Assembly: GCA_021781455.1 (NCBI GenBank)
Contig: JAJXWV010000033.1
Location: forward strand, 201,169 to 265,168
Reading direction: 5' to 3'
DNA: 64,000 nt
Source of the DNA: Acidobacteriota bacterium
GTDB taxonomy: Bacteria > Acidobacteriota > Thermoanaerobaculia > Gp7-AA8
Shown: piece after piece, positions 3,814 through 60,115 of the stretch
Layout: each line of letters starts with the position of its first letter
Numbering within the stretch: the first letter of the stretch is position 1
Translations under genes and position numbers: made by a program
The notes under the pieces: generated by a model
The model's database searches: none
Told to the model about the DNA's origin: nothing
The model's input: only the letters and a program-made list of their open reading frames with translations

Positions 3814-4835
3814 TGCTGGTGGATCTTGCTCAGGGCCTCTGCTGCTTTGACGCGCACGTACAGGTTTTCGTCACCCTGGGCCACTTTCTGGCGCAGCGAG
3901 TCGACGGCCTCCGCGTCGAGAGCCTGACCGCTGCCGGCCATCTTCGAGAGAGCCTCCACGGCCTTGATGCGGACCGACGGATTGGGATCGTTCTTCAGCG
4001 CATCGATGAGCGCGTCGCGGGTCACTTCACCATTGGAGGTGACGCGGGCGGGCAGCTTCTGGAGCGTGTCGACGGCGCGGATGCGCACGCCTTCGCGCTG
4101 CTCGTTGCGCAGAATCCCCGCCAGCGCCTGCGCGATCTCCGTATTCGCATACTGCGGCTGCGAGTAGGTCTGACGGACCCAGTCGATCGCCTGCGAGCGC
4201 GCCGGAGACGTCTTTTCTTCGTTCTGCAGCACGTAGGACAGCAGGCGGACCATGCTCTTGTCGGTCGGGCTGCCCGTCACGGTCACATGCGAGGTGAGGT
4301 CGAAAGCCACCCCGATCTGACCGTCGCTCGGATCGGCATCGACGAACTGGACATGCTGGATGTCCGGACGACCTTCGATGTTGGGACTGACCGCGGTCGC
4401 CGGAAGCACACGGGTCTCGGCAATCGAGTAGACCGGCTGCGCGCCGACCAGCGGGCGCAGCGCGGCCACGGTGGCCGGCTGCGAAAAGAGGCGCAGCGGT
4501 GCGGCGCGATGCCCGGTGAAATACGCCGCCCCGGCCACGAGCACCACTCCCGCAGCCTGCGCCACCCACCTCACCACAGGACGCCGGTGGAAGGGGACGA
4601 CCACAGCCTGCTGCCGGGGCATGACCTCGTCGAGGAAGCGCTCACGGGCGCGCGCCGGCACTGCCACGGCGGGCAGGGCGCCGAGGATCTGCCAGGTATC
4701 CTTGAACGAAAGCCACTCTTCACCGCACGCTGCACAGGTCTCGATGTGCCGGTGCGCGGTCTCGCGGCTGGCCGGGTCGAGCGACTCGGCCAACAGAAGC
4801 GGCAGGCTCTCTCTCACGACATGGCATTCAGACAT
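3810..4835 (-). CDS. Zinc-finger anti-sigma factor with C-terminal HEAT (PBS-lyase-like) repeats
   Basis: N-terminal HRHIETCAAC (HxxxCxxC) zinc-binding anti-sigma motif, a central TM segment and C-terminal repeats of (V/I)R..A..AL. Lies immediately downstream of the ECF sigma gene and overlaps it. Confidence 0.7.
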   Translation of the reverse strand: MSECHVVRESLPLLLAESLDPASRETAHRHIETCAACGEEWLSFKDTWQILGALPAVAVPARARERFLDEVMPRQQAVVVPFHRRPVVRWVAQAAGVVLVAGAAYFTGHRAAPLRLFSQPATVAALRPLVGAQPVYSIAETRVLPATAVSPNIEGRPDIQHVQFVDADPSDGQIGVAFDLTSHVTVTGSPTDKSMVRLLSYVLQNEEKTSPARSQAIDWVRQTYSQPQYANTEIAQALAGILRNEQREGVRIRAVDTLQKLPARVTSNGEVTRDALIDALKNDPNPSVRIKAVEALSKMAGSGQALDAEAVDSLRQKVAQGDENLYVRVKAAEALSKIHQQ

Positions 4836-7032: not shown

Positions 7033-7077
7033 TTCGCGCGAACTATACAGATCGAATACGCGACTGGCCAGTCCGAG

Positions 7078-7470
7078 CGGGTAGCGGGTAGCGGGTAGCG
7101 GGTAGCGGGTAGCGGGTAGCGGGTAGCGGGTAGCGGGTAGCGGCCAAAGATAGGCGTTCGCACATGAGTCAGCTGAATTGTTCGAGATGCAGCTAATCGC
7201 TCGCATGTTTTCTGACCACAGAGCACACAGAGAGCACTGAGTTCATCGCGCAGGCGTCTCCGTGTTCTCTGTGCTCTCTGTGGTTAAGAAAACCCGTCCC
7301 CGGCGCCGACACTCGAACAGCCTACCCGCTGAAGTTCCGGAAGAGCCCTGAATTCAGAACGCAGAATTCAGAATGAAGATCGAAGGCCAGAGCGCCGGAT
7401 CGTCCTGCCTCTGCCCGCTCGTCTCCTCAGACGTCCTGCTCCCTACCCGCTACCCGCTACCCGCTACCCG
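7078..7470. repeat. Inverted arrays of tandem GGGTAGC heptamers (7078-7144 forward, 7441-7470 reverse) bracketing a roughly 300-bp lower-GC loop; the loop contains a second hairpin (ccacagagcacacagagagcac / gtgttctctgtgctctctgtgg)
   Basis: Direct reading: about 9 heptamer units on the left, 4 reverse-complement units on the right. The same heptamer occurs at 2165-2190 and 34166-34266. Confidence 0.8.
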
Positions 7471-7491
7471 CTCGTCTATCATTCGCCGCAC

Positions 7492-12907: not shown

Positions 12908-13365
12908 CTTTGAATTGAAAATTGAAAATTGAAAATTGAAAACGAAAAAAAACGAGAAATCAGTTTCGGCTGCGTCGAACGATCGTCGTCAGAATGGCAA
13001 TCAATTCGCTTGACTCTTCGATCAGCGGCTCAATCTTCTTGTGCTGCTCAGACAGCGATCGGTTCAAAATTCTGAGCCAGTACCTCGCCTCACGCGCTTC
13101 CTTGAGAGCGATTGTGCATTTAGAGATGAAATCCGCGCGACTTTGCGCCGCGTCAGCTTCCTCGAGATTTGCTCCCACAGAGCTCGCCGCATTGCTCCCC
13201 TGCGCACTGGTTCCGCGTAAAGCGGGTTCAGAGTGGTAGATGGAGCGGTGCAAGTCGACGACCGCACAGGCGAATTCAAACACACGTTCGCGCAGCTCCG
13301 AGCCCTTTCCGTCTTCGCGGTCTCGCACTCTCATGTCTTTTCAATTTTTCAATTTTCAATTTCGT
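12908..13365. mobile_element. Low-GC insertion carrying a four-helix-bundle protein gene, bounded by inverted arrays of GAAAATT heptamers (12908-12955 and 13338-13365)
   Basis: ttgaaaattgaaaattgaaaattgaaaa on the left and ttttcaatttttcaattttcaattt on the right. Composition is much more AT-rich than the flanking operon. Confidence 0.45.
12960..13334 (-). CDS. Four-helix-bundle protein (23S rRNA intervening-sequence protein family, TIGR02436-like)
   Basis: 124 aa helical protein with the conserved (F/Y)xL..Q..RA..S motif context typical of IVS/four-helix-bundle proteins. Atypical codon usage. Confidence 0.65.
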   Translation of the reverse strand: MRVRDREDGKGSELRERVFEFACAVVDLHRSIYHSEPALRGTSAQGSNAASSVGANLEEADAAQSRADFISKCTIALKEAREARYWLRILNRSLSEQHKKIEPLIEESSELIAILTTIVRRSRN

Positions 13366-19374: not shown

Positions 19375-19424
19375 TGTCTCTCTCCCTAATTGCGGAGTGA
19401 CGGCGTACACCCAATCCCTACCAA

Positions 19425-19850
19425 TCTTTATGGCTCTTCAGGATATTCAGTGGGTCCGGCGAGGTTTCGAAGGGCACTCCAGCCGTGGAGGCGTGAGGTT
19501 TAAGGCGGCTTAGCCGCCGTAAGAATTTAGCGGCGGCCGTCAGGCCGCCGGAACAAGCGATCGCATCAGCGTACGAGGGCACGAAGTGCCCGACAGAAGG
19601 CCGGGAAACAGACCGACGATCTGTCGCGCGCTGCGCGCGCTCGGACGCTGGGTCGGGCCGATCGGACGGCGGCCTGACGGCCGCCGCTAAATGATGTCGG
19701 CGGCTCCGCCGCCTCGACAAAGCCTTACTGGCAACTTCGACGTCTGACGGCCAGGGGTGAGGGCTTCTCCGTAAACGATTGACTCAGTAGCCATGAACCC
19801 AGCTGTCAGTTTCTGATCTCACCCACGGAAATCCCCGTAGAGCCATCTTT
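19425..19850. repeat. Family-B palindromic MITE-like element (core aatttagcggcggccgtcaggccgccg ... cggcggcctgacggccgccgctaaat)
   Basis: Copies in inverse orientation at 26855-27240, and a shorter copy at 51120-51335. Confidence 0.8.
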
Positions 19851-19929
19851 ATCGAATGGCAGAGATCCGCCGGGAGCGAGACTTCGCGCGCCGGGATACC
19901 GCCCCGGCGACCTCGAGCGACCAGGGCAG

Positions 19930-26739: not shown

Positions 26740-26807
26740 CACGCGGCAGTTTATGCGAGGGACGGCGAGGCTCCGGAAGCAGCCGGGACCGAGGGGTTCA
26801 TGCAACC

Positions 26808-27330
26808 CAAAAAGAAAATGTTGAATGTTGAATGTTGGCCCTACAGGGATTTCCGTGGGTGAGATGAAAATTGGCATTGACAGCTGGGTTCATTGCTACC
26901 GATGGTTTGCGGAGAAGCCCTCACCCCTGGACGTCTGACGTCGAATTTGCCATTGGAGCTTTGTCGAGGCGGCGGAGCCGTCGACATCATTTAGCGGCGG
27001 CCGTCAGGCCGCCGTCCGATCGGCCCGACCCAGCGTCCGAGCGCGCGCAGCGTGCGACAGATCCTCGGTCTGTTTCCCGGCCTTCTGTCGGGCACTTCGT
27101 GCCCTCGTACGCTGATGCGATCGCTTGCTCCGGCGGCCTGACGGCCGCCGCTAAATTCTTGCGGCGGCTAGGCCGCCTTGAAAGTCGCTGCTCCGCGGCG
27201 CGAGTGCACTCTTCGAAATTTCGCCGGACCCACTGAATATCCTGAAGCGCCTGAATATTCAATGTTGTCAGAGTCTCCGGTTCGCCTCTTCATCCAACAC
27301 TCAATATTCAACATTCAACACTTCGCTTTC
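26808..27330. repeat. Family-B MITE copy (26855-27240) sitting between inverted arrays of GAATGTT/GAATATT heptamers (26808-26835 and 27245-27330)
   Basis: aatgttgaatgttgaatgttgg on the left, caacactcaatattcaacattcaacac on the right. The internal 385 bp are the reverse complement of the 19425-19850 copy. Confidence 0.75.
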
Positions 27331-27331
27331 A

Positions 27332-28363
27332 TCACAGTTCGCTCAGGCGCTGCCGCAGGGCGCGCTCGTTCTCTCTGGCGTGTTCCAGCGCCGATTCCAG
27401 CGCGGCGACGATGGCGCGCGTGTTGGCGAGCAGCGACTCGATGCCGGCGCGCTCGGCCGCGGTATCGGCCGGCGCAGCGGCCGCGAACGGCTCCGCAACC
27501 GCAACGGGAGGATCGATCACCGGCGCCGCGCCGAACGGGTCTTCCTCGAGCGGCGGCGCCGCCGGCGCGAAGACGCTTTCGAACGCAGCAACGGGCACCG
27601 GGGCCGGCTGTGCGAATGCCGCCGGCGGCACCTCGACTGCCGGACGCCCCGCCGGTGAAGGTCTCGGCGCACCCTCGCGCATGGAAAGCTTCGGCGTGCC
27701 GGCCGAGGCGGAGGTCGCTCCCGCCTTCGCCGACATGTCGGGGGCGGTCAGCTCCGGCTCTTCGGCCAGTGTCGTGTCGACGTGGTTCTTGAGGTTGTCG
27801 AGAATTCGTCCCACGGCCGCACGCAGCGTCGCCGTGACTCCCACGCCGTTGATCGCGGCCGCCTCGATCACCGGCGCCGGGCCCGGCTCCAGATAGGCGG
27901 TCATGTCGTCGACGCTGTCGGTGTTGGGCAGATCGCGCTTGTTGTACTGGAACACCAGCGCCACTTTCTCCGGATCGATCCGGTTGAGGCGCAGGTTGGT
28001 CTTGAGGTTCTGCAGGCTGTCGACGTTCGACTCGCGCATCGACGCCTGCGAATCGGCGACGAAGACCACGCCGTCGGCGCCGCGAAGCACCAGCTTGCGC
28101 GTGGCGTCGTAGAACACCTGGCCGGGAACCGTGTACAGCTGCACGCGGACCTTCTGGCCGCCGATCGTGCCGAGCTCCATCGGCATGAAGTCGAAGAAGA
28201 GGGTGCGGTCCGTCTCCGTCGACATCGAGATCATCTTGCCCTTGTTCTCAAGCTTCGGATTGGCGTAGACCTTTTCCAGGTTCGTCGTCTTCCCGCACAG
28301 GCCGGGCCCGTAGTACACGAGCTTGACCGTGACTTCGTTGATCGCCTTGTTGATCAGGACCAT
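27332..28363 (-). CDS. MglA-family Ras-like small GTPase with a long Ala/Pro-rich C-terminal extension ending in a coiled coil
   Basis: N-terminus VKLVYYGPGLCGKTTNL plus G3/G4 motifs (TVPGQ, QYNKRD) closely match MglA. The protein is 343 aa versus about 195 aa for MglA. Confidence 0.8.
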   Translation of the reverse strand: MVLINKAINEVTVKLVYYGPGLCGKTTNLEKVYANPKLENKGKMISMSTETDRTLFFDFMPMELGTIGGQKVRVQLYTVPGQVFYDATRKLVLRGADGVVFVADSQASMRESNVDSLQNLKTNLRLNRIDPEKVALVFQYNKRDLPNTDSVDDMTAYLEPGPAPVIEAAAINGVGVTATLRAAVGRILDNLKNHVDTTLAEEPELTAPDMSAKAGATSASAGTPKLSMREGAPRPSPAGRPAVEVPPAAFAQPAPVPVAAFESVFAPAAPPLEEDPFGAAPVIDPPVAVAEPFAAAAPADTAAERAGIESLLANTRAIVAALESALEHARENERALRQRLSEL

Positions 28364-37072: not shown

Positions 37073-37335
37073 GACTCCCGTCACTCTGATTCTGAGCCGG
37101 CGAAGCCGCGGTTCCCGTCACTCTGACTCTGAGCCCGCGAAGCCGCGGGGAAGGGTGGGCGGATGGAGCGGCGTAGCGCGGCGAAGAGTCTCAAACCGAC
37201 GAATCGTCCCGGTAAGAGACTCTTCGCCGCGCTCCACCGCTCCCACCCATCCACCACCCCCGCGTTTCCCCCGGCTCAGAGTGACGGGGCCGCTGGGCCC
37301 GCCGGCTCAGAGTGACGGGAGGCCGCGGCTCCGGC
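37073..37335. repeat. Family-A composite REP element (two tandem gtcactctga-type units plus a gagtctcttaccgggacgattcg inverted pair)
   Basis: Direct sequence comparison with the other copies. Confidence 0.8.

Positions 37336-42758: not shown

Positions 42759-42761
<3 letters not shown>
41431..42761 (-). CDS. sufS: Cysteine desulfurase SufS (PLP-dependent), with a repeat-encoded N-terminal extension
   Basis: Group II desulfurase motifs (YLDNAATTQKP, SGHKVYGPTGIGVLYG, HHCAQPL). The only in-frame ATG/GTG/TTG is at 42761, giving an ATGA overlap with the sufD stop. The first roughly 40 codons are the gaccgcag octamer hairpin. Confidence 0.85.
42648..42760. repeat. Inverted arrays of GACCGCAG octamers lying inside the annotated 5' coding region of sufS
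   Basis: gaccgcagaccgcggaccgcagaccgcag ... ctgtggtctgcggtccgcggtctgcggtcc. Confidence 0.85.
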
Positions 42762-44878
<2,117 letters not shown>

Positions 44879-47180: not shown

Positions 47181-47660
47181 ATGCGAAATCTCGCTGCAGT
47201 GGCGATCGCGTCGATGCTCTTCGGGAGCGTGGCAAGCGCTCAGATGAAGGTTCCACAGGCGCCGCAGAGCGGCTCGCCGGTGGTCATACAGCCTGCCCTG
47301 CAGACGCAGACTGAACCTTCACTCGAGTCCGCACGCCGCATCCCGCGAGCCGAAGCGATCAAGCTGGTCAAGGAGAAGAAAGCCATTTTCGTCGACGTCC
47401 GGCCCAAAGAGTCTTACGACGCCGGGCACATCAAGGGAGCGATCAGTATCCCGTTGAGCGAGCTCATCGCGCGGTTGCGTGAACTGCCGCCGAAGAAGTT
47501 CATCATCACCTACTGTGCCTGACTGCAGGAACACACGAGCGCCCGTGCGGTGCTCGACCTCAACGCTCATGGAATCAAGAACACGGCCGCCCTGCTCGGC
47601 GGGTGGAACGGCTGGGTGGAAGCCAAAGAGCCGATCGAAACGACCCCGGCCAAAAAGTAA
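47181..47660 (+). CDS. Periplasmic single-domain rhodanese-like sulfurtransferase interrupted by an in-frame TGA at 47520-47522 (pseudogene, or selenocysteine/readthrough candidate)
   Basis: Signal peptide, then a rhodanese fold (AIFVDVRPKESYDAGHIKGAISIP...KFIITYCA-TGA-LQEHTSARAVLDLNAHGIKNTAALLGGWNGW). Homology continues in the same frame after the TGA up to a TAA at 47658-47660, which is followed by a canonical terminator. Confidence 0.5.
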
Positions 47661-47685
47661 AGAATTCGAACTTCAATTTCCTCTG

Positions 47686-47713
47686 AAGCCCGGCGCAAGC
47701 CGGGCTTTTTCTT
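47686..47713 (+). terminator. Rho-independent terminator
   Basis: gcccggc-gcaa-gccgggc stem-loop followed by tttttctt, about 25 nt after the TAA of the rhodanese reading frame. Confidence 0.65.
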
Positions 47714-47778
47714 CAGTCCTGAGTGCTGAGTCCTGAGTCCTGAATGGATTGGACCTGGCTCGGCATCAACTGAAGTGA

Positions 47779-49345
<1,567 letters not shown>

Positions 49346-51002: not shown

Positions 51003-51020
51003 GCAGACAGGATAAGACAA

Positions 51021-51370
51021 GTGCTGAGTCCTGAGTGCTGAGTCCTGAGTGCTGAGTCCTGAGTGCTGAGTCCTGAGTGCTGAGTCCTGAGTGCTGAGTG
51101 CTGAGTGCTGAGCGCTGAGCGCCGAGGCGGCGGAGCCGCCGAAAGAATTTAGCGGCGGCCGTCAGGCCGCCGGAGGGTCGGTCGTGTGAGCGTAAGAGGG
51201 CGCGAAGCGCCCGGCAGAAAACTGGGGAGAAACACAAGGATCTGTCGCACGCTTTGCGCGCTCGGACGCTGCGTCGGCTGATCCGACGGCGGCCTGACGG
51301 CCGCCGCTAAATTCTTTCGGCGGCTCCGCCGCCTCAGCACTCGCCCACTCAGGACTCAGGACTCAGCACT
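51021..51370. repeat. Family-B MITE copy (51120-51335) nested between inverted arrays of CTGAGTC/CTGAGTG heptamers (51021-51115 and 51335-51370)
   Basis: About 13 heptamers on the left and 4 reverse-complement units on the right; the MITE core is in between. Confidence 0.8.
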
Positions 51371-59924: not shown

Positions 59925-60115
59925 CGAAGCGCGCCCCCGTCACTCTGAGCCGGCGGAACCGCGGGTGCGGTGGATGGGCGGGAGCGGTGGAGCGCGGCGA
60001 AGAGTCTCTTACCGGGACGATTGACAGGTGTGAGACTCTTCGCCGCGCTACGCCGCTCCACCACCCGCCCTTCCCCGCGGCTACGCCGGCTCAGAGTGAC
60101 GGAGCCGCGATCATT
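59925..60115. repeat. Family-A composite REP element copy
   Basis: gtcactctgagccggcg / gagtctcttaccgggacgattg / caatcg..gagactcttcgccgcg / ggctcagagtgacgg modules. Confidence 0.8.

Follow-up and report, generated by a model that had tools for sequence, protein, structure and literature searches.

A palindromic repeat found at three loci of a 64-kb stretch of acidobacterial DNA (the window) very probably consists of two non-autonomous elements nested one in the other. The inner element is a core that resembles a REPIN (a doublet of repetitive extragenic palindromic, or REP, sequences forming a hairpin) and was probably built from the ends of a tyrosine transposase gene of the Y1 type (IS200-like). 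It is carried within an ISL3-type MITE (a small transposable element with inverted repeats) at two of the loci (copies 1 and 2) and lies alone at the apex of a hairpin of heptamer repeats at the third (copy 3). The window is 99.93-99.96% identical to contigs of the metagenome-assembled genome (MAG) GCA_027388875.1 (DAHYCD010000025.1) and of an ENA assembly; the G+C content of the window is 64.7%, and its best-matching proteins are named as Thermoanaerobaculia, phylum Acidobacteriota. Loci from other assemblies are designated by L and a number.

The three copies and their outer shell

An earlier note on this DNA had described one element at three loci. All three were recovered with the 25-mer TTTAGCGGCGGCCGTCAGGCCGCCG, which occurs exactly six times in the window, at 19526, 19667(-), 26990, 27131(-), 51148 and 51287(-), where 100 shuffles gave a chance expectation of none. 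Since these matches form three inverted pairs, they mark three copies of the element, whose coordinates were refined by three-way alignment of the loci together with direct reading of the sequence. Copies 1 and 2 are homologous over ~413-415 bp, and copy 3 matches their central 212-214 bp only. Copy 3 lacks the extra flanks of about 70 + 129 bp common to the other two and therefore represents the 212-bp core alone. The surroundings of the copies were also as the note had described them. Copy 1, in the gap that separates the proS stop from the next gene's start, has no tandem arrays nearby; copy 2 is inverted relative to copy 1 and lies between GAATGTT arrays, (GAATGTT)n at 26815-26836 and (AACATTC)n at 27291-27320; copy 3, between divergent GGDEF and glycerate-kinase-like genes, lies between CTGAGTC arrays, (CTGAGTS)n at 51020-51123 and 51336-51370, in inverted orientation.

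19432-19844, + strand: composite copy 1, 413 bp, putative ISL3-type MITE shell with REPIN-like core (alignment with copy 2, terminal inverted repeats [TIRs], target-site duplication [TSD])
26837-27251, - strand: composite copy 2, 415 bp, in the orientation opposite to copy 1 (alignment, TIRs, TSD)
51124-51335, no strand: core copy 3, 212 bp, without MITE shell (fold, unit HMM matches, empty site in L031)
19502-19715, no strand: core of copy 1, 214 bp, two inverted ~100-nt units (nhmmer units at 19497-19599(+) and 19618-19719(-))
26966-27179, no strand: core of copy 2, 214 bp, 97.2% identical to the core of copy 1 (alignment, unit HMM matches)
51122-51221 (+) and 51238-51340 (-): the two units of copy 3 (unit HMM, a profile hidden Markov model)

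The shell of copies 1 and 2 is bounded by imperfect 24-bp TIRs that begin GGCTCTTC and match at 18/24 positions in each copy. A target-site analysis, which the earlier note had called for, found that each of these copies has its own 8-bp TSD, and none was visible at copy 3.

19432-19455, + strand: left TIR of copy 1, GGCTCTTCAGGATATTCAGTGGGT, 24 bp
19821-19844, - strand: right TIR of copy 1, GGCTCTACGGGGATTTCCGTGGGT as a minus-strand reading
19424-19431: left TSD of copy 1, ATCTTTAT, abutting the element and identical to the right 8-mer
19845-19852: right TSD of copy 1, ATCTTTAT, 8/8 identity with the left
26829-26836: TSD of copy 2, TGAATGTT, 7/8 identity with its partner
27252-27259: second TSD of copy 2, TGAATATT

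Both target octamers contain at most two G/C, as do 1.8% of the 8-mers of the window, and when copy 2 is excised in silico with one copy of the TSD left behind, the heptamer array is in phase again. ISL3-family inverted repeats are ~24 bp long and start with GGCTCTTCG, with direct repeats (DRs) of 8 bp, as in ISArsp7 and ISPst2 (AT-rich DRs) (PMC6305408 Table 3), and a Microcystis MITE with GGCTCTTCG terminal repeats and 8-bp DRs has been attributed to ISL3 (PMC11448079). Because its TIRs start with GGCTCTTC and its 8-bp target duplications are AT-rich, the shell of copies 1 and 2 is, to judge by these sequence features, an ISL3-type MITE of 413-415 bp.

An ISL3-like end, GGCTCTTCCGGAACTTCAGCGGGT, was also seen at 7324-7347 (-), between arrays (AGCGGGT)9.7 and (CTACCCG)4.3 that lie 300 bp apart (window 7076-7472); no partner TIR or TSD was recognisable for it. 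The same interval holds a 'CACAGAG' hairpin repeat (~7216-7290) resembling repeats of Chersky MAG loci.

The core, Y1 transposase genes and Acido-Lenti-1

Two inverted ~100-nt units, each with three hairpins, make the core a near-perfect palindrome, which forms an almost continuous hairpin with ~100-nt arms. Each unit is ordered as hairpin A, the linker AGAAT-TTAGC, hairpin B (GGCGGCC-GTCA-GGCCGCC), a spacer of ~20 nt, CAGCGTNNAG, hairpin C and GACAG. All three doublets in the window are thus inverted palindromic pairs forming a long hairpin, the arrangement by which REPINs are recognised. Their predicted folds range from -153 kcal/mol (z = -11.6, copy 1) to -192 kcal/mol (z = -18.9, copy 3), and the two strands of the core fold equally well (-152.9 vs -154.3 kcal/mol). 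In an alignment of 29 units 98.4% of cells were paired, with 23 changed on both sides, a result equalled by 0/500 shuffles; hairpin B is nearly invariant, and hairpins A and C keep their pairing despite two-sided changes.

Scans of public collections recovered the same repeat family in metagenome contigs and in a Thermoanaerobaculia MAG, where nine loci were found despite its fragmented state; the 64-kb window holds three doublets. Singlets of ~100 nt outnumber doublets among the collection loci and may be decayed remnants. A free-standing doublet at one locus, L012, belongs to the subfamily of the cores borne by the MITEs and shares their asymmetric linkers. Its flanks were considered as diverged MITE wings and rejected, their local alignments being no better than those of shuffles. 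As the flanks of this doublet are unrelated to the wings, the core can be delimited as running from hairpin A to hairpin A′. Shell and core are, on these comparisons, taken to be separable elements.

At three loci on contigs of related Thermoanaerobaculia (L025, L029 and L037), inverted units of this family enclose a Y1 transposase gene. In L025 the open reading frame (ORF) at 632-1081 (149 aa) matches Pfam Y1_Tnp PF01797 (2.1e-22) and NCBIfam transpos_IS200 NF033573 (65.8 bits, cutoff 55) and lies between inverted units at 534-632 and 1144-1244. The L029 homologue is 64% identical to the L025 protein, and the L037 protein is a close relative of that of L029. The HUH motif (DHVHLL) and catalytic Tyr (GYGAFSVS) of the Y1 protein align to ISDra2 TnpA (PDB 2xm3). 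Since the same inverted units flank the Y1 gene in these relatives, the core corresponds to the unit-gene-unit element minus its gene, and is assigned as a putative REPIN-like, gene-less derivative of a Y1/HUH (IS200/IS605 superfamily) transposase unit.

Further units and unit-derived tandem arrays lie beside the L029 and L037 Y1 loci. Between the right unit of the L037 Y1 locus and the next unit is a 22-bp tandem array derived from the outer end of the unit (gtcgagccgcatgaRggcgcag, 4570-4665), and the orthologous position in L029 (1400-1480) has an unrelated 15-bp array instead. Tandem arrays seem quick to arise beside unit ends.

A scan of the window with Rfam at gathering thresholds gave zero matches. 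Below threshold, the outer pair of hairpins in each arm (in the order B, linker GCUAAAU, A) can be aligned to the full Acido-Lenti-1 model (RF01687, positions 1-46) at 28.9-32.1 bits (E down to 7.7e-6; gathering threshold 37 bits), with 28.9 bits for copy 1 at 19503-19550(-) and 32.1 bits on each arm of copy 3. At E-value thresholds the long palindrome also attracted miRNA-precursor models from plants and animals (MIR1437, MIR5534 and others), which were dismissed as generic long-hairpin matches scoring far under the cutoff. The window units have the two-hairpin architecture of Acido-Lenti-1, in which an 8-bp hairpin with a CUNACG loop is followed by GCUA + ~8 nt and a short second hairpin ending in U. 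RF01687 seed sequences share this layout and are multi-copy and often clustered (supplement PMC2864571). The window copies differ from them in an added inner module (spacer, CAGCGT box and hairpin C) and in scoring below threshold.

Matches above threshold were found beside homologous Y1 genes in more distant loci, from other Acidobacteriota. A distant Y1 homologue in L042 (1410-2046) lies between inverted Acido-Lenti-1 matches of 48.2 and 39.1 bits, and one in L045 (1290-2197) is flanked by two doublets with matches of 41.5, 55.9 and 47.5 bits; these bona fide matches thus span 39-56 bits. In L030 (2748-3581) and L039 (1406-2046) the Y1 homologues are flanked by inverted Acido-Lenti-1 motifs of 23-30 bits. 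Acido-Lenti-1 has been classed as a likely RNA, and filed in Rfam as a small RNA (sRNA) since 2010 (PMC2864571). From these associations it appears to be the terminal repeat of a clade of Y1 transposons, not an sRNA gene, and the window units are best placed as a divergent, Acido-Lenti-1-related subfamily with an extra inner module. An sRNA of unassigned function is in this way linked to the inverted ends of Y1 transposase genes.

The converse, that the core is a structured sRNA gene of the Acido-Lenti-1 class selected for its RNA function, with the repeats as paralogous sRNA genes, would agree with the full-length alignments to RF01687, with the covariation in hairpins A and C and with the classification by Weinberg et al. 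(PMC2864571). We regard it as very unlikely, chiefly because Y1 transposase genes are consistently bounded by the motif in the form of inverted repeats. The scores under the gathering threshold, the near-perfect palindrome with 100-bp arms whose strands fold equally well, the unrelated contexts and orientations of the copies and their presence/absence polymorphism at orthologous sites (below) also argue for a mobile element. Core copies may be transcribed under the mobile-element reading as well, as REPs frequently are.

Insertion sites and the question of hairpin targeting

The sequences hosting copies 2 and 3, and the orthologous array sites in relatives, are as follows.

51020-51123, no strand: left arm of the (CTGAGTS)n hairpin hosting copy 3 (Tandem Repeats Finder: period 7, 14.3 copies)
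51336-51370, no strand: right arm of the same hairpin
27260-27321, - strand: rest of the GAATGTT hairpin (proximal 3′ arm, 26-nt loop, 5′ arm), downstream of a 343-aa gene ending at 27332
26806-26828, - strand: distal piece of the interrupted 3′ arm, (AACATTC)n, with the T-run TTTTCTTTTT
L031 9895-9970, L032 9900-9985, L034 3015-3148, L036 3131-3218: orthologous array sites

A comparison of insertion polymorphism, also suggested by the earlier note, revealed empty sites for both copies. In L031, where a protein flanking the site is 76% identical, the orthologous GGDEF/glycerate-kinase intergenic region is 146 bp long and holds the same (CTGAGTS)n hairpin with a loop of 9-10 nt and without the core. 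This hairpin is therefore older than the insert, and copy 3 sits at its apex. At the same position a relative further removed (L032/L033) has an 8-mer hairpin of another sequence, GTCACGAG. In L034 and L036, whose BshC is 85-87% identical, the intergenic regions orthologous to the copy 2 site (86-132 bp) lack both the MITE and the GAATGTT hairpin, and L036 carries a short (GATGACCCCT)x2 repeat there. Hairpin arrays at orthologous intergenic sites thus turn over across relatives. By dating the heptamer hairpin at copy 3 before its insert, the empty sites also bear on the nature of the hairpins themselves.

The earlier note had two copies nested in hairpin loops. This is accurate for copy 3, at the apex of its hairpin, but copy 2 interrupts the 3′ arm and not the loop, since a further piece of that arm (27252-27267) separates it from the true 26-nt loop. 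Read on the minus, coding strand, the reconstructed empty site of copy 2 consists of a 27-bp heptamer stem, the 26-nt loop and then UUUUCUUUUU, and is predicted to fold at -42.9 kcal/mol (z = -5.4); the model looks like a terminator. With its 8-bp duplication in an AT-rich arm, copy 2 has the marks of a DDE-type insertion, and copy 3 is a duplication-free one at an apex, so the mechanisms would differ.

The note had suggested that the nesting reflects a target preference for hairpin loops. On that reading a single MITE family, variable in length, has a transposase that favours such loops, those of heptamer hairpins especially, and several observations are consistent with the idea. The site of copy 3 is precisely the apex of a heptamer hairpin that was there beforehand. 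Removal of the core leaves a junction that belongs, in MITE copy 1, to the loop of a local hairpin of 9 bp and, in copy 2, to the apical part of one. The cognate flanks of 8 doublets pair at -11.35 vs -9.50 kcal/mol for non-cognate flanks (permutation p = 0.011), a suggestive complementarity. The p value, however, is 0.067 without copy 3 and about 0.06 in a simpler similarity test. The DDE-type duplication in an arm at copy 2 and the separability of shell and core further argue against a single hairpin-seeking family, which we consider unlikely; the two nested cases represent two elements and two mechanisms. As an alternative, the note had offered a composite element. The palindrome is indeed carried within a MITE, but this is composite in a different sense from the one intended.

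Arrays are common enough in this DNA to be met by chance. At least 16 of ~39 intergenic regions (≥30 bp) hold short-unit arrays, which cover ~15% of ~8.0 kb of intergenic DNA (a census of the window only, from a crude gene map with corrections). No more than three choices of site are recorded in the window (MITE copies 1 and 2, and core copy 3), and two of three falling in an array has a probability of about 0.1. No enrichment of arrays beside units was shown in 25 other loci, where a detector that missed some imperfect arrays placed an array within ~80 bp of roughly half the outer ends that had sufficient flank. This frequency is similar to the ~40-50% of window intergenic regions that hold arrays. 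Arrays near units at these loci generally stood at distances of 18-80 bp and on a single side, with direct abutment in L007/L010 alone. The Y1 element may have a structural preference for hairpin apices; tolerance is an equally simple explanation, as a terminator-like hairpin keeps its stem when the insert is at the tip. The 'MITE that likes hairpins' thus becomes two ordinary selfish elements stacked on each other, and is not to be treated further as a new mechanism of targeting.

A literature search on heptamer hairpins in Acidobacteria found nothing relevant. Several other arrays were seen in the window. Inverted AT-rich heptamer arrays (AATTGAA)n and (TTTTCAA)n, 395 bp apart at 12913-13362, enclose a whole small gene, the 124-aa ORF 12960-13334 (-) (TIGR02436, 'four helix bundle protein', 73 bits), so cargo other than the core also nests between array arms. 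An inverted array, (CGGTTCCT)3.6/(CCCGAGGAA)4.4, at 43723-43807 lies inside the coding sequence of sufD (42759-44120, -), at the place of 25 extra residues inserted in frame, SVPRVPRGSSGRAVPETEEPEEPRN, which orthologues of 85% and 73% identity lack; hairpins made of arrays therefore also occur outside intergenic DNA. L026 and L027, assemblies from the same population, differ by exactly 7 bp within ~47188-47824 (array AGTCCTG, 47710-47743), which fits a copy-number polymorphism of one heptamer. A dispersed repeat of ~167 bp is present at 59931-60097 and 37126-37293 (-), with 91% identity, the latter copy overlapping a tandem duplication of 37 bp (37076-37148).

As the earlier note had pointed out, copies 1 and 2 bracket ~7 kb, which contain proS, bshA, bshB, bshC and a methyltransferase gene. 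A composite transposon around this segment was considered and rejected, each MITE copy having its own TSD and the order 350-aa gene, methyltransferase, bshC, bshB, bshA being conserved in relatives. The relatives compared have no MITE between the 350-aa gene and the methyltransferase gene, and their contigs end within proS, short of the copy 1 site. The 7-kb proS/bsh segment is native.

Proposed history and comparison with known systems

By analogy with IS608/ISDra2 and with E. coli TnpA-REP, a Y1 transposase supplied in trans would bind the core hairpins on single-stranded DNA, excise the core and re-insert it into single-stranded DNA without target duplication. DDE transposition of the shell by an ISL3-family enzyme would have carried the core passively to the sites of copies 1 and 2. 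The GAATGTT array, among the few AT-rich stretches in a 65% G+C genome, was probably hit for its AT-richness and not for its hairpin. Copy 3 would have arisen separately, when the core by itself inserted at the apex of a heptamer hairpin that was already in place.

Several results weigh against this account. Between copies 1 and 2 the cores are identical at 208/214 positions (97.2%) and the wings at 58/72 (81%) and 108/129 (84%; Fisher p = 3e-7), whereas passive hitch-hiking predicts equal divergence. A tblastn search with the Y1 protein found no Y1 gene in the 64-kb window, and the nearest candidate cognate transposases (L029, L037) belong to other assemblies. No ISL3 gene is present in the window, none with matching TIRs was found in the collection scans, which queried the core only, and no MITE copy without the core was found; lacking both a matching ISL3 transposase and a core-less MITE, we can only infer the order of nesting. 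The comparison with REPINs is also imperfect, the units here being ~100 nt long with three hairpins vs 20-40 nt for a REP, and the tag beside hairpin B being TTAGC where classical REPs have GTAG. Finally, the Y1 protein fails the NCBIfam equivalog for REP-associated tyrosine transposases (RAYTs), REP_Tyr_transpos NF047646 (21.7 bits vs a cutoff of 80), and is nearer in sequence to IS200/IS605 TnpA than to the E. coli RAYT.

This last point raises the alternative that the units are the ends of an ordinary multi-copy insertion sequence (IS) of the IS200 type, and the core a recent internal-deletion derivative (a palindrome-associated transposable element, PATE, or MITE) instead of the long-lived partner of a RAYT. 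The protein passes transpos_IS200 while failing the RAYT model, its nearest solved relatives are the TnpA proteins of ISDra2 and IS608, and the unit-gene-unit element of ~700 bp has the size of IS200. Each cluster of Y1 homologues, on the other hand, occurs on 1-5 contigs, with the same gene neighbourhood in every assembly where several exist. A single-locus, RAYT-like gene fits these numbers better than a multi-copy IS. The inverted-repeat ends are unlike those of canonical IS200/IS605, gene-less units far outnumber gene-bearing ones (about 30 units vs 3 genes in the data), and many of the homologues carry the name RayT in their source records. We therefore doubt the IS200 explanation and retain the REPIN-like reading of the core.

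The contrast between core and wings is sharpest at the left boundary of the core, where identity drops abruptly; the TIRs are conserved and the inner wings are not. Candidate explanations are long-separated MITE lineages that needed both TIRs and core for propagation, homogenisation of the core by gene conversion, and independent insertions of one master core into two old shells at the same apical position. A tentative and rather improbable extension is that a Y1 element of the RAYT/TIRYT type may favour, for its integration, the tips of extruded hairpins, where the DNA is single-stranded, and may be homogenised or installed anew as a discrete unit, with the identity of Acido-Lenti-1 as its terminal repeat following as a by-product. 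If true, it would explain the apex site in the heptamer hairpin, the local-hairpin apex in both MITE copies, and the 97% identity of the cores vs 81-84% for the shells with its sharp drop on the left.

Among known systems, the shell agrees with ISL3-family MITEs in its GGCTCTTC starts, TIRs of ~24 bp, 8-bp DRs, AT-rich targets and small, non-coding form; it differs in having its interior filled by an unrelated Y1-type palindrome and in that a cognate ISL3 transposase was not found. IS1397, ISKpn1 and ISPpu9/10 insert into REP palindromes (PMC1525189) and likewise place a mobile element inside a palindromic repeat or hairpin. In those cases the REP is the target, whereas in this window a heptamer tandem array forms the target hairpin and the REP-like element has been inserted (copy 3) or carried along as a passenger (copies 1 and 2).

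REPINs are regarded as RAYT-type elements from which the gene has been deleted (PMC3116915, PMC3337134). The core resembles REPIN-RAYT systems (PMC3116915, PMC3337134, PMC2817692, PMC3333891) in its inverted palindromic repeats forming a long hairpin, in the decayed singlets, in a Y1/HUH gene, apparently single-locus, that has conserved neighbours and is flanked by the same repeats in inverted orientation, and in the lack of a visible target duplication. Besides unit length and tag, the differences are a doublet of 212-214 bp vs about 90-110 bp, a Y1 protein nearer IS200/IS605 TnpA that fails the RAYT model, and a host in the Acidobacteriota (Thermoanaerobaculia). The closest published description is that of TIRYT/TIRtron elements, RAYT-like genes with long, partly double-palindromic TIRs that include a sharply defined Acidobacteria group and whose TIRs can form moderately abundant families of single, dimeric or grouped copies (PMC3733652). 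Their architecture matches by its published description. The described members are from Terriglobia-type isolates (Koribacter, Terriglobus, Granulicella, Acidobacterium), and nesting in an ISL3 MITE or in heptamer hairpins is not described there (PMC3733652). Taken together, these comparisons indicate that the repeat is largely explained by known kinds of element, as ordinary bacterial selfish DNA, and that it extends REPIN/RAYT-type systems to Thermoanaerobaculia, an acidobacterial class that has received little study, where the three-hairpin units are unusually long.

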